A DNA stretch of 64,000 bases, taken from sequence record OQ349392.1, one strand, 5' to 3'. Of the stretch, positions 3,407 to 51,027 are shown piece by piece. The notes under the pieces are model-generated. The model was not told the DNA's origin. It did no database searches and saw only the letters and a list, made by a program, of their open reading frames with translations. The DNA comes from Escherichia phage KIT06. The position numbers and the translations under genes were made by a program. How positions within the stretch are numbered: position 1 is the first letter of the stretch; each line of letters starts with the position of its first letter.

Positions 3407-3479
3407 TGGGAATTAGCCAAGTTGGTAAGGCATAGCACTTTGACTGCTAGATGCAAAGGTTCGAGTCCTTTATTCCCAG
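3407..3479 (+). tRNA. tRNA-Gln (anticodon TTG)
   Basis: Cloverleaf folded by hand: acceptor TGGGAAT/ATTCCCA, anticodon stem TAGCA/TGCTA, loop CTTTGAC, T-loop GGTTCGAGTCC. Confidence 0.85.
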
Positions 3480-3480
3480 C

Positions 3481-3567
3481 GCGAGAATGGTCAAATTGGT
3501 AAAGGCACAGCACTTAAAATGCTGCGGAATGATTTCCTTGTGGGTTCGAGTCCCACTTCTCGCACCA
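3481..3567 (+). tRNA. tRNA-Leu (anticodon TAA)
   Basis: Acceptor GCGAGAA/TTCTCGC, loop CTTAAAA, long variable arm, encoded CCA. Confidence 0.85.
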
Positions 3568-3572
3568 AATTT

Positions 3573-3647
<75 letters not shown>

Positions 3648-3657
3648 ATTTAATTTA

Positions 3658-3731
3658 CTCCGTGTAGCTCAGTTTGGTAGAGCGTCTGCTTTGGGAGCAG
3701 AATGTCGCAGGTTCAAATCCTGCCGCGGAGA
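3658..3731 (+). tRNA. tRNA-Pro (anticodon TGG)
   Basis: Acceptor CTCCGTG/CGCGGAG, loop TTTGGGA, T-loop GGTTCAAATCC; no encoded CCA. Confidence 0.8.
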
Positions 3732-3733
3732 CT

Positions 3734-3823
3734 GGAGGCGTGGCAGAGTGGTTTAATGCACCGGTCTTGAAAACCGGCAGTCGCTCCGGCGACTCATAGG
3801 TTCAAATCCTATCGCCTCCGCCA
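3734..3823 (+). tRNA. tRNA-Ser (anticodon TGA)
   Basis: Acceptor GGAGGCG/CGCCTCC, loop CTTGAAA, long variable arm, encoded CCA. Confidence 0.85.
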
Positions 3824-3828
3824 GTTTT

Positions 3829-3904
3829 GCTGATTTAGCTCAGTAGGTAGAGCAACTCACTTGTAATGAGAAGGTCGGCGGTTCGATTCCGTCAATCAGC
3901 ACCA
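3829..3904 (+). tRNA. tRNA-Thr (anticodon TGT)
   Basis: Acceptor GCTGATT/AATCAGC, loop CTTGTAA, encoded CCA. Confidence 0.85.
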
Positions 3905-3905
3905 A

Positions 3906-3980
3906 GGCCCTGTAGCTGGAAGGTTCAAGCAAGCGACTCATAATCGCCAGATGGTGGTTCAATTCCACCCAGGGCCACCA
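3906..3980 (+). tRNA. tRNA with CAT anticodon (Ile via lysidine as in T4, or Met)
   Basis: Acceptor GGCCCTG/CAGGGCC, loop CTCATAA, encoded CCA; occupies the tRNA-Ile position of the T4 array. Confidence 0.75.
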
Positions 3981-3989
3981 AATTAATTT

Positions 3990-4076
3990 GGGGAGTTATC
4001 CCGTAGAGGTAGCGGTGTGGACTGTAAATCCATTGTCATTGCGACTCGGGTGGTTCGACTCCATCACTCCCCACCA
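3990..4076 (+). tRNA. tRNA-Tyr (anticodon GTA)
   Basis: Acceptor GGGGAGT/ACTCCCC, loop CTGTAAA, long variable arm, encoded CCA. Confidence 0.75.
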
Positions 4077-4080
4077 ATTT

Positions 4081-4155
4081 GGATGTGTAGCTCAATGGCA
4101 GAGCGATCGCCTGTTAAGCGATTGGTTATAGGTTCGAATCCTATCACGTCCGCCA
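4081..4155 (+). tRNA. tRNA-Asn (anticodon GTT)
   Basis: Acceptor GGATGTG/CACGTCC (one G-U), anticodon stem ATCGC/GCGAT, loop CTGTTAA, encoded CCA. Confidence 0.75.
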
Positions 4156-4159
4156 AATC

Positions 4160-4235
4160 CGAGGCATAGCTCAGAAGGAAGAGCAAGGACCTTCTAAGTC
4201 CTAGGTCGTAGGTTCGATCCCTATTGCCTCGACCA
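4160..4235 (+). tRNA. tRNA-Arg (anticodon TCT)
   Basis: Acceptor CGAGGCA/TGCCTCG, loop CTTCTAA, T-loop TTCGATC, encoded CCA. Confidence 0.8.
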
Positions 4236-15130: not shown

Positions 15131-15138
15131 TATAAATA
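15131..15138 (+). promoter_or_regulatory. T4 late promoter (TATAAATA)
   Basis: Exact TATAAATA 26 bp before ATG 15164. Confidence 0.55.
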
Positions 15139-28594: not shown

Positions 28595-29024
28595 GTGGTT
28601 TAGAATTAATCGTGCTGATACAGGGCTGTGTAATTATTGGCCGGAACTTAGTGCAGGTACTGTCTTTAAAGTTCGTGAACTTACAAAAGAATGCGAAGAT
28701 GATATAGAACCTGATACTGGAATTATTGAAATTGAACTTTCTGATGGAAAGATTATTAACATCTACGATAAGCCAATTACGTATTGGTGCTTATGGAATA
28801 CTGAATCAGTAGAAAATGGCGAAATTGAAGAGGTCGTAGAACGAGTTGATCAAGCTATTCATAAACCTAAAGCCGCTTTTCAAGGTGAACGTATTTCATA
28901 TGCATTAGCTAAATTAGCTGCGCAAGAAAACAACGATGGCTATGAAGGAAATTTGATGCAAGCTGCGGCAGAATATATTGAATGGCTTGAAACTCAAATT
29001 TCTTTTTCTGACCGAGCATTTTAA
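28578..29024 (+). CDS. hypothetical protein
   Basis: ATG 28578 (MITVDKW...); alternative ATG 28560. Confidence 0.45.
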   Translation: MITVDKWFRINRADTGLCNYWPELSAGTVFKVRELTKECEDDIEPDTGIIEIELSDGKIINIYDKPITYWCLWNTESVENGEIEEVVERVDQAIHKPKAAFQGERISYALAKLAAQENNDGYEGNLMQAAAEYIEWLETQISFSDRAF

Positions 29025-29042
29025 TACTTGAAAATAATAAAT

Positions 29043-29067
29043 ACCCTTATCTATTCAAGGTAAGGGT
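29043..29067 (+). promoter_or_regulatory. hairpin sequestering the gene 49 ribosome-binding site
   Basis: ACCCTTA-11 nt loop-TAAGGGT then TTTTATT; the 3' stem contains AAGGG 8 nt before ATG 29074. Confidence 0.5.
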
Positions 29068-29073
29068 TTTATT

Positions 29074-29547
29074 ATGTTATTGACTGGCAAATTATACAAA
29101 GAAGAAAAACAAAAATTTTATGATGCACAAAACGGTAAATGCTTAATTTGCCAACGAGAACTAAATCCTGATGTTCAAGCTAATCACCTTGACCATGACC
29201 ATGAATTAAATGGACCAAAAGCAGGAAAGGTACGTGGGTTGCTATGTAATCTCTGTAATGCTGCAGAAGGTCAAATGAAGCATAAATTCAATCGTTCTGG
29301 CTTAAAGGGACAAGGTGTTGATTATCTTGAATGGCTAGAAAATTTACTTACTTATTTAAAATCCGATTACACCCAAAATAATATTCACCCTAACTTCGTT
29401 GGAGATAAATCAAAGGAATTTTCTCGTTTAGGAAAAGAGGAAATGATGGCTGAGATGCTTCAAAGAGGATTTGAATATAATGAATCTGACACTAAAACAC
29501 AATTAATAGCTTCATTTAAGAAGCAGCTTAGAAAGAGTTTAAAATGA
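29074..29547 (+). CDS. 49: endonuclease VII (Holliday-junction resolvase)
   Basis: 157 aa MLLTGKLYKEEKQKFYDAQNGKCLICQRELNPDVQANHLDHDHELNGPKAGKVRGLLCNLCN... as recalled for T4 gp49. Confidence 0.95.
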   Translation: MLLTGKLYKEEKQKFYDAQNGKCLICQRELNPDVQANHLDHDHELNGPKAGKVRGLLCNLCNAAEGQMKHKFNRSGLKGQGVDYLEWLENLLTYLKSDYTQNNIHPNFVGDKSKEFSRLGKEEMMAEMLQRGFEYNESDTKTQLIASFKKQLRKSLK

Positions 29548-31361
29548 CAATTGAAAAAGAAATTGAAGGATTGATTCATAAAACTAATAAAGACCTTTTA
29601 AACGAGAATGCTAATAAAGATTCTCGTGTTTTTCCAACTCAACGGGACCTTATGGCTGGTATTGTGTCTAAACACATTGCCAAAAATATGGTCCCGTCTT
29701 TTATTATGAAAGCGCATGAAAGCGGAATTATTCATTTCCATGATATTGATTATTCCCCTGCTCTTCCATTTACTAATTGCTGTTTAGTAGATTTAAAAGG
29801 AATGCTTGAGAACGGATTTAAGCTCGGTAATGCACAGATTGAAACTCCTAAATCAATCGGTGTTGCTACTGCAATTATGGCACAAATTACTGCACAGGTT
29901 GCTTCCCATCAATATGGTGGAACGACTTTTGCGAATGTAGATAAAGTACTTTCTCCTTATGTTAAACGCACCTATGCAAAACATATTGAGGACGCAGAAA
30001 AATGGCAAATCGCTGATGCGTTGAATTATGCCCAATCTAAAACAGAAAAAGATGTATACGATGCATTCCAAGCTTATGAATACGAAGTAAATACTCTCTT
30101 TAGTTCAAACGGACAAACGCCTTTTGTAACAATTACATTTGGTACGGGAACTGACTGGACTGAACGAATGATTCAGAAAGCAATTCTGAAAAATCGTATT
30201 AAAGGCCTTGGTCGCGACGGGATAACTCCTATTTTCCCTAAACTTGTTATGTTCGTTGAAGAAGGTGTTAATCTTTATAAAGACGATCCGAACTATGATA
30301 TTAAGCAGCTTGCTCTAGAATGTGCAAGTAAAAGAATGTATCCTGACATCATTTCGGCTAAGAACAATAAAGCTATCACCGGTTCATCTATTCCTGTTTC
30401 TCCAATGGGTTGTCGTAGTTTCTTGGGTGTATGGAAAGATTCGACTGGTAATGAAATTCTTGATGGACGTAATAATCTTGGTGTTGTAACACTGAATCTT
30501 CCTCGCATTGCACTAGATTCTTATATTGGAACACAGTTCAATGAACAGAAATTTGCCGAATTGTTCAATGAGAGAATGGATTTATGTTTTGAAGCATTGA
30601 TGTGTAGAATTAGTTCATTAAAAGGAGTTAAAGCTACTGTTGCTCCTATTCTTTACCAAGAAGGTGCATTCGGGGTTCGTCTTAAACCTGATGACGATAT
30701 AATTGAGTTATTTAAAAACGGTAGAAGTTCAGTGTCTTTGGGATACATTGGTATTCACGAATTGAATATTCTTGTCGGTCGTGATATTGGACAAGAAATT
30801 TTAACTAAAATGAATGCTCATCTTAAGCAGTGGACTGAAAGAACTGGTTTTGCTTTTAGTTTGTATTCGACACCTGCTGAAAACCTGTGCTATCGCTTCT
30901 GTAAACTTGATACCGAAAAATATGGAAGTGTAAAAGATGTTACCGATAAAGGCTGGTACACTAACAGTTTCCACGTTTCAGTAGAAGAAAATATCACTCC
31001 GTTTGAAAAGATTTCTCGTGAAGCACCATATCATTTCATTGCGACAGGTGGTCACATTTCTTATGTTGAACTTCCTGATATGAAAAATAACCTAAAAGGT
31101 CTTGAGGCTGTATGGGATTATGCTGCGCAACATTTAGATTATTTTGGCGTTAACATGCCAGTAGATAAATGTTTTACGTGTGGAAGTACCCATGAAATGA
31201 CTCCTACTGAAAACGGATTTGTTTGTTCTATTTGTGGAGAAACTGATCCTAAAAAGATGAACACAATAAGAAGAACATGCGGATATCTTGGAACTCCTAG
31301 CGTTGTTCCATGGAATTTAGGTAAAATGAAAGAAATGGTAAAACGAGTAAAACATGCATAG
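29544..31361 (+). CDS. nrdD: anaerobic ribonucleoside-triphosphate reductase NrdD
   Basis: 605-aa uninterrupted ORF with C-terminal glycyl-radical motif RRTCGYLG and Cys cluster. Confidence 0.97.
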   Translation: MTIEKEIEGLIHKTNKDLLNENANKDSRVFPTQRDLMAGIVSKHIAKNMVPSFIMKAHESGIIHFHDIDYSPALPFTNCCLVDLKGMLENGFKLGNAQIETPKSIGVATAIMAQITAQVASHQYGGTTFANVDKVLSPYVKRTYAKHIEDAEKWQIADALNYAQSKTEKDVYDAFQAYEYEVNTLFSSNGQTPFVTITFGTGTDWTERMIQKAILKNRIKGLGRDGITPIFPKLVMFVEEGVNLYKDDPNYDIKQLALECASKRMYPDIISAKNNKAITGSSIPVSPMGCRSFLGVWKDSTGNEILDGRNNLGVVTLNLPRIALDSYIGTQFNEQKFAELFNERMDLCFEALMCRISSLKGVKATVAPILYQEGAFGVRLKPDDDIIELFKNGRSSVSLGYIGIHELNILVGRDIGQEILTKMNAHLKQWTERTGFAFSLYSTPAENLCYRFCKLDTEKYGSVKDVTDKGWYTNSFHVSVEENITPFEKISREAPYHFIATGGHISYVELPDMKNNLKGLEAVWDYAAQHLDYFGVNMPVDKCFTCGSTHEMTPTENGFVCSICGETDPKKMNTIRRTCGYLGTPSVVPWNLGKMKEMVKRVKHA

Positions 31362-32184
31362 GTATTATATAATTTATAAAATAACAAATATAATTAATTC
31401 AAAGGAATATATCGGTGCGCATAGCACCGATAACATAAATGACGGTTATATGGGGTCAGGAACATTGATTCGTGCCGCTTTATTAAAATATGGTAGAAAA
31501 AATTTTAATAAAGAAATTTTACATGTTTTTGATAATGAAAAACAAATGTATGATAAAGAAGCTGAACTCGTAACCGAAGAGTATTGTCTAAAAGAAAATA
31601 CATATAATATTAAACCTGGTGGAAAAGGTGGAACTGCCTATGAACAGACACTTGAACATCGCCGCAAAAATAGTTTAGCAAATAAAGGTAAAAAGAGAAC
31701 AGAAGAAACTAAAATAGCTATTTCACGTGCTTTAAAGAAATATAAACGTACGCCAGAGCATCAAGCAAATTTAAATAAAGCCGTAAGCATAGCTATGAAG
31801 CGAAAAGATGTTAGAAGTAAATTAGCTGGAGAGCGGTCTGAGAAAGATAAATTATCTATATCAAACGGTGTTAAAAAATATTACAATTCTTTGAGTGAAG
31901 AAGAACGCGAACTTCATCGCAAGCGAATTATTGAAGGTAAAAAGAATTCTCCCATGTCATTGGAATCTAGACAAAAGCTTTCAAAAGCTTTAAAAGGACT
32001 TCAAGTTGGTTCAAAAAATCCAATGTATGGAAAAATTTCTCCAACTAGCAAAACCGTTTCAGTTGACGGTATTAAATATGATTCAATTAAAAAGTGCTCA
32101 AATGCCATAAAAGTTTCTAGACATCTTATACTAAAACGCTGTAATTCTACTGATGAAGCTTGGAAAAATTGGATATTATTATGA
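31354..32184 (+). CDS. free-standing GIY-YIG homing endonuclease (Seg-like)
   Basis: N-terminal YIIYKITN...EYIGAHS GIY-YIG module; basic C-terminal region with NUMOD3-like GSKNPMYGK; overlaps nrdD stop and nrdG start. Confidence 0.8.
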   Translation: MHRYYIIYKITNIINSKEYIGAHSTDNINDGYMGSGTLIRAALLKYGRKNFNKEILHVFDNEKQMYDKEAELVTEEYCLKENTYNIKPGGKGGTAYEQTLEHRRKNSLANKGKKRTEETKIAISRALKKYKRTPEHQANLNKAVSIAMKRKDVRSKLAGERSEKDKLSISNGVKKYYNSLSEEERELHRKRIIEGKKNSPMSLESRQKLSKALKGLQVGSKNPMYGKISPTSKTVSVDGIKYDSIKKCSNAIKVSRHLILKRCNSTDEAWKNWILL

Positions 32185-32651
32185 ATTATGACAGAATATA
32201 CCCGTGTTGCTTTGTTAACGGTCCTGGGTGCCGAACTGTTCTTTTCGTTACAGGTTGTTTGCATAAATGTGAAGGGTGTTATAATAAATCAACATGGAAT
32301 GCTAGAAATGGCGTTCCATTCACTGGTGAAACACTAGAACAATTAATTAAATGTTTGAATAATGATTATATAGAAGGATTAACTATAACTGGAGGAGACC
32401 CTCTCTATCCAGATAACCGAGATGTTGTTCATTGCATTGTTCAAACAGTAAAAAATCTTTATCCGAATAAAAGCATTTGGTTGTGGACAGGATATAAGTT
32501 TGAAGATATTAAACAACTAGAAATGCTTAAATATGTTGATGTTATTATTGATGGGAAGTATGAGAAAAATCTTCCGACCAAAAAGCTGTGGCGAGGTTCA
32601 GATAATCAGCGACTTTGGTCAAATACCGATGGGGTGTGGAAACATGATTAA
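32181..32651 (+). CDS. nrdG: anaerobic RNR activating enzyme NrdG (radical SAM)
   Basis: MNYDRIYPCCFVNGPGCRTVLFVTGCLHKCEGCYN...; ATG 32181 overlaps the endonuclease stop. Confidence 0.9.
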   Translation: MNYDRIYPCCFVNGPGCRTVLFVTGCLHKCEGCYNKSTWNARNGVPFTGETLEQLIKCLNNDYIEGLTITGGDPLYPDNRDVVHCIVQTVKNLYPNKSIWLWTGYKFEDIKQLEMLKYVDVIIDGKYEKNLPTKKLWRGSDNQRLWSNTDGVWKHD

Positions 32652-32765
32652 ACTGAATTATATTATTGATACTATAAATGATATGATTTTTCATTTTGGT
32701 CCAGAATTTTATTCGCAGTATAGTTTAGTACTTATCAATGCTTGGTTAATCAATTAAGGGTAAAT

Positions 32766-48815: not shown

Positions 48816-49556
48816 ATGATTAATGACTCTATGACAGTTGAAGAAATTCGTCTTCATTTGGGAATTGCATTAAAGGAAAAAGATTTTGTAATTGACAAAA
48901 CCGGGGTTAAAACTATTGAAATTATTGGTGCATCATTTGTAGCAGATGAACCTTTTATTTTTGGTGCTCTTAATGACGAATACATTCAGCGTGAACTTGA
49001 ATGGTATAAATCTAAAAGCTTGTTTGTTAAAGATATTCCAGGTGAAACACCGAAGATTTGGCAACAAGTAGCATCTTCTAAAGGTGAAATTAACTCGAAT
49101 TATGGTTGGGCTATCTGGTCAGAAGATAACTATGCTCAGTATGATATGTGTTTAGCTGAACTTTGTCAAAATCCTGATTCTCGACGTGGTATCATGATTT
49201 ATACTCGTCCATCCATGCAATTTGACTACAATAAAGATGGTATGTCAGATTTCATGTGTACTAATACAGTACAGTACCTGATTCGTGATAAGAAAGTCAA
49301 TGCAGTCGTTAACATGAGAAGCAATGATTGCTGGGCAGGCTATCGTAATGATTATGCATGGCAAAAATACGTATTAGATAAATTAGTATCTGATTTGAAT
49401 GCAGGCGACCCATCGCGGCAATATAAAGCAGGTTCTATTATATGGAACGTTGGAAGTCTTCATGTGTACGAAAATCAGTTTTATTTAGTTGACCATTGGT
49501 GGAACACTGGTGAAACTCATATTGCTAAAAAGGATTATACTGGAAAATGGAAGTAA
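48816..49556 (+). CDS. 42: dCMP hydroxymethylase gp42
   Basis: 246 aa MINDSMTVEEIRLHLGIALKEKDFVIDKTGVKTIEIIGASFVADEPF... Confidence 0.95.
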   Translation: MINDSMTVEEIRLHLGIALKEKDFVIDKTGVKTIEIIGASFVADEPFIFGALNDEYIQRELEWYKSKSLFVKDIPGETPKIWQQVASSKGEINSNYGWAIWSEDNYAQYDMCLAELCQNPDSRRGIMIYTRPSMQFDYNKDGMSDFMCTNTVQYLIRDKKVNAVVNMRSNDCWAGYRNDYAWQKYVLDKLVSDLNAGDPSRQYKAGSIIWNVGSLHVYENQFYLVDHWWNTGETHIAKKDYTGKWK

Positions 49557-50188
49557 ATGTGCCACATGTTTATAAGTATAAACATCCTAAAACTAAAAAG
49601 TGGTATATAGGAAGTCATGATGGTCACAACCCGAATTATGATGGTTCGGGTGTAGTTTGGCAACATGCTAAAAAGAAATATGGAATAAAATCCTTTAATA
49701 AAGAAATATTATATGAAGGACCAATGTTTAGACAAGTTGAAGAAATTATTTTAACTTGTTTAGATGCTGCTAATTGTCCGGATTCATATAATTTAAAGAA
49801 TGAAGCATGGGGAGGAAGTTTTCCAGGCAAATTAAATGGAATGTACGGTAAAAAACTATCTCCAGAAGAAAGATATAAGTGCGGAAATGCCTTTCGTGGA
49901 ATCAAGCGTCCTGATCATTCTAAAAGAATGAAAGGCGAAGGTAATCCAATGTATGGTAAAAATGAGCAGGCATATGGAATTATAAATCGAGCAAAGGAAA
50001 ATTCTGGTAAAACTTATGAAGAAATTTTTGGCGCAGAAAAAGCTAAAATAATTAAAGAAACGATGTCTAAAAATCGTAAAGGAAAACCTCATAATTTGAT
50101 AGAAAAAATATGTCCGCATTGCGGACTAAAAGGACGTGGGCCAAATATGACAAGATACCATTTTGACAAATGTAAGGCACTTAAATGA
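49547..50188 (+). CDS. free-standing GIY-YIG homing endonuclease (Seg-like)
   Basis: HVYKYKH...KKWYIGSHDG GIY-YIG module; repeated NUMOD3-like GKKLSPEE / NPMYGK motifs; overlaps gene 42 stop. Confidence 0.75.
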   Translation: MEVNVPHVYKYKHPKTKKWYIGSHDGHNPNYDGSGVVWQHAKKKYGIKSFNKEILYEGPMFRQVEEIILTCLDAANCPDSYNLKNEAWGGSFPGKLNGMYGKKLSPEERYKCGNAFRGIKRPDHSKRMKGEGNPMYGKNEQAYGIINRAKENSGKTYEEIFGAEKAKIIKETMSKNRKGKPHNLIEKICPHCGLKGRGPNMTRYHFDKCKALK

Positions 50189-51027
50189 TTCAATTTGTAA
50201 TTCCAAGTTATCAACGCGTAGGGGCAGTTTCTGCCCTTGATATGTTTCCGACTGATTATGAACCTCATATTGTAGTACGTGAACACGAAGAAAAAGCTTA
50301 TTTTGACGCTTACGGGTCTAGAGCTAAAATTATAACTATTCCTGATGATGTTAATGGAATTGCTGGAACTCGTAAAGCAATTACTGATATGTATGCAGGT
50401 CAACGAATTTGGATGATCGATGATGATACTACTATTCGTATGAGTTCAATGCGAAAGAAAGATGATCGTCGCTGCGTAGATAAAATTAATCAGTTAACTC
50501 GTGAACAGTTCTATGAATTGATTCAATATGTTGAAGATGCCATGGATTGCGGATATTATCATGGCCATGCTCGTTTACCAATTTTTAAAATTACTTCATC
50601 TTGGGGTAATTATCGTGAAAATTCATATGGATTCACGAATACATGGTATGACCTTGGAAAACTTACGACAGAACAAATTGGGTATGGAAAAATTGATTTA
50701 TGCGAAGATATGTATGCATTTCTCAATTTAATTAATCAAGGTTATCCGCATTTGGCCTTGTTCAAATATCTGGTTGTGTCTGGAAAAGCACAAGCTCCAG
50801 GTGGATGTAGTTCAATTCGTAGTAATTCAAAACATAATAGAGCTCTTGAGCAAATCAATAGAGAGTTTCCAGAGCAAGCTCGTTGGAAAACATCGAATAT
50901 TGAAAAGAGAAAATCGTTGGGTGAAGAAGACGAGCCATTAAAGGTTCTTCGCATGTGTGTTTCGCGCAAAGAAAAATCAGAAGCGTTTCATAAGTTTAAT
51001 GCTATTCATCCAATAGCAGTCGATTAA
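50185..51027 (+). CDS. GT-A-type glycosyltransferase in the beta-gt slot (possibly T2/T6 beta-glucosyl-HMC-alpha-glucosyltransferase)
   Basis: 280 aa with DxD-type motif WMIDDDTTI; unlike T4 beta-gt as recalled. Confidence 0.5.
   Translation: MIQFVIPSYQRVGAVSALDMFPTDYEPHIVVREHEEKAYFDAYGSRAKIITIPDDVNGIAGTRKAITDMYAGQRIWMIDDDTTIRMSSMRKKDDRRCVDKINQLTREQFYELIQYVEDAMDCGYYHGHARLPIFKITSSWGNYRENSYGFTNTWYDLGKLTTEQIGYGKIDLCEDMYAFLNLINQGYPHLALFKYLVVSGKAQAPGGCSSIRSNSKHNRALEQINREFPEQARWKTSNIEKRKSLGEEDEPLKVLRMCVSRKEKSEAFHKFNAIHPIAVD

Follow-up and report, generated by a model that had tools for sequence, protein, structure and literature searches.

What is the open reading frame lodged between nrdD and nrdG in the T4-like Escherichia phage KIT06, and does its presence have anything to do with the absence of the group I intron that T4 carries in nrdD? 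To address this, we analysed a window of 64,000 nucleotides (sequence record OQ349392.1), in which gene 49 (endo VII; 29074–29547, placed by ORF layout) is followed by nrdD, the gene in question, named segH below, and nrdG, the corresponding order in T4 being 49-nrdD-mobC-nrdG. All genes and tracts described here lie on the plus strand.

The gene at the nrdD/nrdG junction

The ORF at 31354–32184 encodes 276 amino acids and is a separate reading frame, in a frame of its own, between two complete genes. Upstream lies nrdD (29544–31361), whose 605-residue product was assigned from the ORF and from Pfam matches to NRDD (E=4.8e-171) and Gly_radical (E=7e-25) as the large subunit of the anaerobic (class III) ribonucleotide reductase; downstream lies nrdG (32181–32651), encoding the activase of NrdD, a radical-SAM protein with Pfam matches to Fer4_12 (E=4e-48) and Radical_SAM. 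For nrdG the ORF list gives a TTG start at 32160; the ATG at 32181 yields the 156-residue protein beginning MNYDRIYP, as annotated in PP01, T6 and T2. The preliminary description had a 276-residue ORF overlapping both the nrdD stop and the nrdG start, and these overlaps could be measured: read from the sequence, the segH ATG and the nrdD TAG share 8 nucleotides (ATGCATAG), and the segH TGA and the nrdG ATG share 4 (ATGA).

The translated product is identical at 276 of 276 positions to SegH of phage RB3 (ABI48949.1, in AY262138.2, deposited as ‘SegH homing endonuclease’). A protein of RB10 is likewise 100% identical, and the records of PP01 and T6 name the same gene segH, the T6 protein being 98.2% identical. 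In RB3, U5, T6 and PP01 segH occupies the same position between nrdD and nrdG, with the same 8-nucleotide and 4-nucleotide overlaps as in the window; RB3 differs from the window in the flanks only, its nrdD and nrdG being ~95% identical.

Proteins of the GIY-YIG superfamily carry the GIY and YIG motifs near the N-terminus, 10–11 residues apart. In the translation of SegH we found I6-I7-Y8 and, after ten residues, Y19-I20-G21, within a GIY-YIG domain that extends from residue 1 to ~92 and is marked by Y8, Y19-I-G21, E69 and N85. NUMOD3 repeats follow at residues ~100–228 (NUMOD3 match, E=3.1e-8, above its cut-off), and an I-TevI-like helix-turn-helix occupies residues 226–273. A direct phmmer search of SegH against the PDB sequences gave nothing meaningful and a profile was needed; a family profile of SegH and seven relatives, searched against 177,635 PDB sequences, matched I-TevI only, both in its DNA-binding domain (1I3J, E=5e-12; the match to 1I3J/1T2T covers residues 49–114, E=5.4e-12) and in its catalytic domain (1MK0, E=2.4e-5; 1LN0, E=3.3e-4). 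The catalytic residues of I-TevI are E75 and N90, and its conserved arginine is R27. Y8, Y19, G21, E69 and N85 are invariant in the eight-sequence family alignment; the first three align with Y6, Y17 and G19 of I-TevI, E69 aligns with the E75 position (Ala in the mutant chain of 1MK0, Glu in 1LN0), and N85 aligns with the YN of I-TevI. R27 lies in a stretch of I-TevI that has no counterpart in the Seg profile, and the eight-sequence alignment has no invariant arginine. Among the other family models, PHROG 314 matched SegH with E=2.4e-60, while TIGR01453 ‘group I intron endonuclease’ (E=3.3e-13) scored 50.2 bits, below its cut-off of 56.05, SegE_GIY-YIG (E=0.0024) stayed below the curated cut-off, and Pfam GIY-YIG PF01541 (E=2.9) was not significant alone. 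A single-sequence AlphaFold2 model, all-helical with a mean pLDDT of 43, was unusable.

SegH thus shares the plan of I-TevI of the T4 td intron (1MK0, 1LN0, 1I3J), in which a long linker joins the catalytic GIY-YIG domain at the N-terminus to a DNA-binding part with NUMOD3 and helix-turn-helix at the C-terminus, although their pairwise similarity is low and was detected by profile only. I-TevI, which cleaves at most 25 bp from the intron insertion site, is encoded within a self-splicing group I intron, whereas SegH is free-standing, its gene lying neither in an intron nor in an intein. The SegA–G proteins of T4 share both family and lifestyle with SegH, SegD being 29.5% identical over 91% of SegH, but their insertion sites and targets differ, and segH itself is not found in T4. 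We conclude that the 276-codon ORF is almost certainly segH, a free-standing T-even-type GIY-YIG homing endonuclease gene at the nrdD/nrdG junction. Sandegren, Nord and Sjöberg (Nucleic Acids Res 2005, 33:6203) reportedly described SegH as a free-standing GIY-YIG homing endonuclease, which is said to cleave close to its own gene and to home in mixed infections. The arrangement in the window is therefore real but ordinary, segH having been known since 2005; the preliminary description had not recognised the gene as one already characterised.

The intron-less nrdD and the T4 junction

The nrdD gene of the window is collinear with spliced T4 nrdD, and the sole break in the otherwise continuous alignment with T4 is a 1033-nucleotide block found only in T4, which maps between positions 30081 and 30082. 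At this empty intron site the exon junction is rebuilt as AYE immediately followed by YEVNT. An Rfam scan of the window for group I introns (RF00028) returned none, while the T4 nrdD intron, used as a positive control, was recovered at 105 bits. Except for one synonymous T>C change, the intron-less allele is that of T2, T6 and RB3, and the T4-type nrdD intron was found in only 27 phage records; lacking it is the common state of nrdD.

Alignment and scan both bear out the preliminary description of nrdD as a single 605-codon ORF without the T4 group I intron, and the coordinates it gave for the locus, 29544–32651, proved exact. The comparison with T4 and T2 that it had proposed for nrdD-nrdG located the intron gap at 30081/30082 and found the T2 junction empty and the T4 junction occupied by mobC. 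It had also placed the endonuclease gene at this locus ‘instead’ of the intron; the intron is indeed absent and the gene present, but the link between the two does not hold, because some relatives have both. RPN226, Lv5cm and LH2 carry the intron together with segH, T2 carries neither, and T4 combines the intron with mobC at the position that segH occupies in the window. Since relatives carry both, either or neither, replacement of the intron by segH is ruled out, and the two are independent presence/absence polymorphisms. The sunY-type nrdD intron of T4 with I-TevII resembles segH as a mobile element that targets nrdD but, unlike segH, is missing from the window.

T4 mobC, a free-standing HNH homing-endonuclease-like gene, lies at the same junction and in the same orientation as segH. 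Like segH, it overlaps both neighbours and borrows host codons, its own beginning duplicating nrdG codons 1–7; it differs in encoding a nuclease of an unrelated family (HNH, 210 aa) and in its point of insertion, which lies on the nrdG side of the junction, whereas that of segH lies in the nrdD tail.

A shared cassette with recoded edges

To delimit the segment that segH shares with RB3, the two sequences were compared across the locus. No mismatch occurs in 956 nucleotides at 31251–32206, a tract made up of segH, 103 nucleotides of nrdD and 26 nucleotides of nrdG, compared with 71 mismatches in 1480 nucleotides of nrdD and 22 in 403 of nrdG. Judged from these sequences, the tract represents a shared, presumptively mobile cassette together with its co-converted edges.

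On the left-hand side, the 3′ tail of nrdD at 31277–31361 is recoded and travels with segH. It starts within the codons for the glycyl-radical motif RRTCGYLG and ends in TPSVVPWNLGKMKEMVKRVKHA followed by the stop, and it differs from HEG-less T2 at 34 of 85 nucleotides, as against 15 of the preceding 395 nucleotides of nrdD (~4%). Every segH-carrying phage examined has exactly this tail. The closest distant homologue of SegH, 47% identical and likewise encoded directly downstream of nrdD, is that of Klebsiella Slopekvirus KLB27; this lineage is ruled out as the donor of the tail, since its NrdD tail differs.

The right-hand edge of the cassette is variable. Here codons 4–19 of nrdG (32192–32237) are recoded, with differences that are almost only synonymous, and in the nrdG 5′ region Pi is 12% among 12 segH-carrying phages versus 1–3% among 7 HEG-less phages. 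The 5′ haplotypes mix segments of the T2 type with segments of a fully recoded type, a mosaic pattern consistent with co-conversion tracts of variable length. The window carries the fully recoded haplotype (TGC CGA ACT), which is rare and is matched exactly in LH2 only and closely in Ec_MI-02 and TB004. In the latter two phages, a 279-residue HNH gene unrelated to segH lies upstream of the fully recoded nrdG 5′ allele and itself begins with 13 unrecoded, T2-type nrdG codons.

The two recoded stretches (31277–31361 and 32192–32237) might be read as a fossil record of several endonucleases competing for one junction: segH of the window would sit on a target-site allele first selected as immunity to the rival HNH endonuclease, and the graded mosaics of the other segH-carrying phages would be the co-conversion end points of single homing events. 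We regard this scenario as speculative and rather unlikely. Independently of it, the nrdD/nrdG junction is a hot spot, at which at least three mutually unrelated endonuclease genes occur.

Spread, maintenance and expression of segH

Among related phages, ~72 records carry segH, whereas 562 of 725 records have a contiguous, empty nrdD/nrdG junction with a CAATGA overlap; in the empty sites of T2 and G50 the nrdD stop overlaps the nrdG ATG. Divergence within the cassette is 0–0.4%, compared with 2–11% in the flanks (Fisher p down to 4e-18), and the pattern of a conserved cassette crosses genera, for example into Mosigvirus moha. That nearly the same cassette stands in diverged backgrounds speaks for its recent transfer. 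LH2 is an exception, its segH allele being more diverged than its flanks; between this allele and that of the window dN/dS is 0.11, a value that indicates purifying selection on SegH. Decayed copies also occur: that of sutha is frameshifted by 4 nucleotides, and that of PD112 has lost ~580 internal nucleotides. Taken as a population pattern, these sequences fit a mobile, selfish cassette. The preliminary description had considered that the same gene might occupy this position in all relatives, which on distribution is not so, given ~72 records with segH and 562 empty junctions; its reading of the locus, a free-standing gene for a GIY-YIG homing endonuclease set between nrdD and nrdG, is upheld by the identity with RB3 SegH, the two-domain profile match to I-TevI, the patchy distribution and a cassette more conserved than its flanks.

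An intact frame could also belong to an inactive relic, once a homing endonuclease gene, that no longer cuts and is kept only because its removal would harm the end of nrdD or uncouple the translation of nrdG. The cassette does contain the stop of nrdD and the start of nrdG, decayed copies are known from relatives (frameshifted in sutha, internally deleted in PD112), and mobC, at the same site in T4, is without demonstrated activity (Table 1 of PMC2988022). However, the ORF of the window is full length, and its product is identical to the RB3 protein, whose deposition describes an active homing endonuclease; all family-invariant residues are kept, comparison with the divergent LH2 allele (dN/dS 0.11) shows selection on the protein, and near-identical cassettes are found in diverged backgrounds, so that we consider a relic highly improbable.

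The gene might instead be kept mainly for the benefit of the phage, be it marker exclusion of a competitor's nrdD-nrdG in co-infection, regulation of the nrd operon or anti-defence; the purifying selection on SegH speaks for this. Seg and Mob enzymes do exclude T2 markers in T4 x T2 crosses (PMC2790892, PMC2988022), and a 2026 report describes SegB as aiding immune evasion by amplifying anti-defence loci (PMC13096335). Against this, most relatives are without segH, as the 562 empty junctions show, decayed copies occur, and the locus suggests no cargo beyond the reductase genes. That phage benefit is the main reason for keeping segH thus seems extremely improbable, although such a benefit is compatible with homing and does not exclude it.

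We found no late promoter (TATAAATA) within 28 kb on either side; the closest ones lie at 15131 and 58221. Immediately ahead of segH there is neither a MotA-type middle promoter nor a sigma-70-like site. Nor was a regulatory hairpin found at segH, where the translation-initiation region folds no better than shuffled sequences (z = 0.35). Seg genes are described as cassettes that lack promoters or are embedded in operons, that lie between genes which are essential or conserved and that are inherited with co-converted flanks, and intronless homing with co-conversion is documented in the same source (PMC2988022). We propose that segH, having no promoter of its own, would be transcribed on the nrdD-nrdG message; given that its ATG is set 8 nucleotides inside the end of nrdD, low-level translation by coupling or re-initiation is probable. 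By overlapping the nrdG ATG, the segH stop would preserve the coupling of nrdG that exists at the empty site.

When a phage lacking segH infects the same cell, SegH would bind DNA through its C-terminal NUMOD3/helix-turn-helix domain, and the N-terminal GIY-YIG domain would make a double-strand break, presumably near the nrdD/nrdG junction. Recombination-dependent repair of the T4 type would then copy segH, with a variable length of nrdD and nrdG flank, from the segH-carrying genome. The former nrdD tail sequence ATGCATAGG serves as the start of segH, and the cassette supplies its own recoded nrdD tail; with a replacement tail and a segH start within the former one, both reductase genes stay intact.

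Beyond correct annotation the value of the finding is small, since segH is a textbook free-standing homing endonuclease gene, reportedly characterised by experiment two decades ago and unchanged in dozens of sequenced phages. The locus is nevertheless a clean natural example of the life cycle of a homing endonuclease gene at one junction, with its stages of invasion (identical cassettes in diverged backgrounds and in another genus), maintenance (by purifying selection) and decay (a frameshift and an internal deletion), and it illustrates how such cassettes can preserve host genes, through a replacement nrdD tail and the stop/start overlaps that are kept.

Identity and setting of the nrdD/nrdG endonuclease gene

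The window comes from the genome of a T4-like (Tequatrovirus-type) phage, and the genes of the locus all lie on the plus strand: gene 49 (endonuclease VII) at 29074-29547; nrdD, encoding the large subunit of the anaerobic ribonucleotide reductase, as a single 605-codon ORF at 29544-31361 (Pfam NRDD, E=4.8e-171, plus a glycyl-radical domain); segH, a 276-codon ORF at 31354-32184; and nrdG, encoding the radical-SAM activase, from an ATG at 32181 to 32651, with Fer4_12 and radical SAM domains. The mechanical ORF list places the nrdG start at a TTG (32160); the ATG at 32181 yields the 156-aa version (MNYDRIYP...) that is annotated in all relatives. The ATG of segH lies within ...AAA CAT GCA TAG and overlaps nrdD by 8 nt, and at the 3' end, TTA TTA TGA, the nrdG start codon overlaps as ATGA. 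Reading the ORFs, segH among them, directly from the sequence showed that the preliminary description, an uninterrupted 605-codon nrdD followed by an endonuclease ORF overlapping both neighbours, was exact in wording and coordinates.

In a translated search against 50,697 phage records, the protein proved 100% identical to SegH of phage RB3 (AY262138.2, titled as NrdD partial, SegH complete and NrdG partial, with the product 'homing endonuclease'), which supports the proposal of a free-standing GIY-YIG homing-endonuclease gene between nrdD and nrdG. RB10 encodes the same protein (100% identity) and T6 a close one (98.2%); in the annotation of T6 and PP01 the gene is named segH. The ORF agrees in full with a deposited sequence and is the segH that has been characterised before. 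The SegH paper reportedly found mobC replaced by segH in a few of 18 screened phages, and it is said to describe cleavage by SegH near its own gene, in segH+ and segH- DNA alike, and homing of segH in mixed infections. In the T4 record, mobC (HNH) stands at the exact position of the window segH, in agreement with its published location between nrdG and nrdD (PMC2988022); segH and mobC are alternative occupants of one site.

When aligned with T4, both nrdD exons matched the window and a 1033-nt T4 block was missing between 30081 and 30082; removing this block from T4 nrdD joins AYE to YEVNT, which the window encodes without a break. An Rfam scan, in which the T4 nrdD intron served as positive control and was detected at 105 bits, found no group I intron in the whole 64 kb, and alignment and scan together bear out the claimed absence of the T4 intron. 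Bar one synonymous change, the intron-less allele of the window is the standard one of T2, T6, RB3 and others, and with the T4-type intron in only 27 phage records the intron-less nrdD is the usual state. The further suggestion that the endonuclease gene replaces the intron did not hold, because the two occur in every combination among relatives, and segH and the missing intron are therefore causally unrelated. In phage LH2 (L012 1291-2330), a divergent nrdD group I intron with 66% nucleotide identity to that of T4 occupies the identical insertion site and codes for a 256-aa I-TevII homologue.

Domain architecture of SegH

Curated single-family models were only partly convincing for SegH: the NUMOD3 model matched above its cut-off (E=3e-8), the I-TevI DNA-binding domain and SegE_GIY-YIG models scored under theirs, the general Pfam GIY-YIG model was not significant (E=2.9), TIGR01453 'group I intron endonuclease' gave E=3e-13 with 50.2 bits against a cut-off of 56.05, and PHROG 314 'homing endonuclease' gave E=2e-60. 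For this reason, we built a profile from SegH and seven relatives (the Klebsiella Slopekvirus homologue, T4 SegD and five others) and searched it against all PDB sequences. Only I-TevI was matched, both in its DNA-binding domain (1I3J/1T2T, E=5e-12) and over the full length of its GIY-YIG catalytic domain (1MK0, E=2.4e-5; 1LN0, E=3.3e-4). Residues Y8, Y19, G21, E69 and N85, invariant in SegH and the seven relatives, align with Y6, Y17, G19, E75 and N90 of I-TevI; a counterpart of I-TevI R27 could not be placed in the family alignment, and a single-sequence AlphaFold model of SegH was unusable (pLDDT 43). The profile matches support a predicted I-TevI-like two-domain architecture.

A second seg-like ORF, of 213 aa, lies at 49547-50188 (+), with VYKY...WYIG motifs, a weak NUMOD3 match and 32% identity to the SegH N-terminal domain; it overlaps both gene 42 (dCMP hydroxymethylase, 48816-49556) and a 280-aa ORF (50185-51027), and its position differs from that of T4 segA. 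Ten tRNA genes are clustered at 3407-4232 (+) (Rfam), one of them barely above threshold (30.2 bits, 3992-4071); this is the T-even tRNA region, and T4 has eight such genes, fewer than the window.

Edges of the insertion and other occupants of the junction

In T2, G50 and five more phages without an endonuclease gene at this junction (HEG-less), NrdD ends in ...KEIMHRVKHQ and its stop codon overlaps the nrdG ATG (CAATGA). In the window and in every segH+ phage, nrdD is heavily recoded over its final 85 nt (31277-31361): this tail differs from T2 at 34 of 85 positions, the 395 nt before it at 15 (about 4%). The changes are at first synonymous, in the RRTCGYLG glycyl-radical codons, and then alter amino acids, from NPNERGFNLGKNKEIMHRVKHQ to TPSVVPWNLGKMKEMVKRVKHA. 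The segH start, ATGCATAGG, has the same nine bases as the M-H-R codons of the T2-type nrdD tail, and the 17-nt patch preceding it, GGTAAAACGAGTAAAAC, re-creates a VKRVKH ending for NrdD in another frame. From this match and this patch, we infer that the cassette (segH and its flanking edges) provides a replacement nrdD tail, the old tail serving as the segH start. The right-hand junction of the insertion is exactly the nrdG ATG.

Within nrdG, segH+ phages have a nucleotide diversity of 12% from +15 to +65, almost all of it synonymous, and in seven HEG-less phages the value for the first 60 nt is 1-3%. The 5' haplotypes form a graded series: T2-type sequence reaches right up to segH in moha, the intermediate haplotypes of RB3, PP01, T6 and others switch type at differing points, and the window, LH2 and the HNH-carrying Ec_MI-02 and TB004 have the fully recoded type. 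Only LH2 shares the window haplotype (32192-32237; TGC CGA ACT) exactly, and Ec_MI-02 and TB004 have it in nearly the same form. We read the graded series as probable variable end points of co-conversion, and an arms race over the target site is a possible source of the haplotypes. Both the recoded nrdD tail and the nrdG haplotypes are consistent with known homing-endonuclease biology.

The HNH occupants are built as the mirror image of segH, T4 mobC having nrdG codons 1-7 repeated at its start. A third occupant, a 279-aa HNH ORF in Ec_MI-02 (L013 1972-2811) and TB004 (L014), is 38% identical to T4 MobC over 60 residues, and its first 13 codons duplicate those of T2-type nrdG (MNYDRFYPCDFVN). 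In Mosigvirus FL18 (L017 1313-1981), nrdD is almost wholly missing and a 222-aa seg-like ORF stands in its place, running on in frame into the 22 terminal codons of the segH-type nrdD tail, with segH directly after; FL18 thus has a tandem of two endonuclease genes and lacks the anaerobic reductase large subunit. The closest distant SegH homologue, with 47% identity, lies immediately downstream of nrdD in Klebsiella Slopekvirus KLB27 (L019 359-1210), where, however, a 53-nt spacer replaces the overlap seen in the window and the next gene is not nrdG.

Expression, mobility and decay

Promoter and structure scans gave no evidence for dedicated control of segH. No late promoter (TATAAATA) was found in the scanned 28800-32700, and the closest exact matches elsewhere in the window are at 15131 and 58221; no MotA-type middle promoter lies directly before segH, those matched in 28800-32700 being in gene 49, early nrdD and nrdG; no sigma-70-like site precedes segH; and its initiation region is no better structured than shuffles (z = 0.35). 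The region's best sigma-70-like match (TTTGCA, 16-nt spacer, TATAAT with upstream TG; 10/12) is located inside nrdG at 32258-32285 (+), about 80 nt past the start. If the T4 cassettes without promoters and the overlapping starts treated in PMC2988022 are a guide, segH would most likely be transcribed on the nrdD-nrdG message and translated at a low level via coupling or re-initiation.

At an identity of at least 90%, segH is present in about 72 records, the same number covering at least 80% of the 4.3-kb query, and the nrdD/nrdG junction is contiguous and empty in 562 of 725 records. Comparison of the window with RB3 gave no mismatch in the 956 nt of 31251-32206, 71 in 1480 nt of nrdD and 22 in 403 nt of nrdG. 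Eleven segH+ phages, Mosigvirus moha among them, typically show a divergence of 0-0.4% in the cassette and of 2-11% in its flanks (Fisher p down to 4e-18). LH2 is the exception, having a 4.8%-diverged segH allele yet the closest flanks; the window and LH2 alleles show a dN/dS of 0.11, and SegH is therefore under purifying selection. Decayed copies were found as well. The segH of sutha (L010 2554-3388) has gained 4 nt behind window position 31434, so that a stop arises at codon 31; PD112 (L007 2826-3056) has lost about 580 nt from inside the gene (window 31493-32069), and only ~140 nt at its start and ~115 nt at its end are left. At 31410-31432, within the segH codons for YIGAHSTD and a little upstream of the sutha frameshift site, lies a perfect palindrome with a 9-bp stem, TATCGGTGCGCATAGCACCGATA. 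Taken together, distribution, conservation, selection and decay are the stages expected of a homing-endonuclease cycle.
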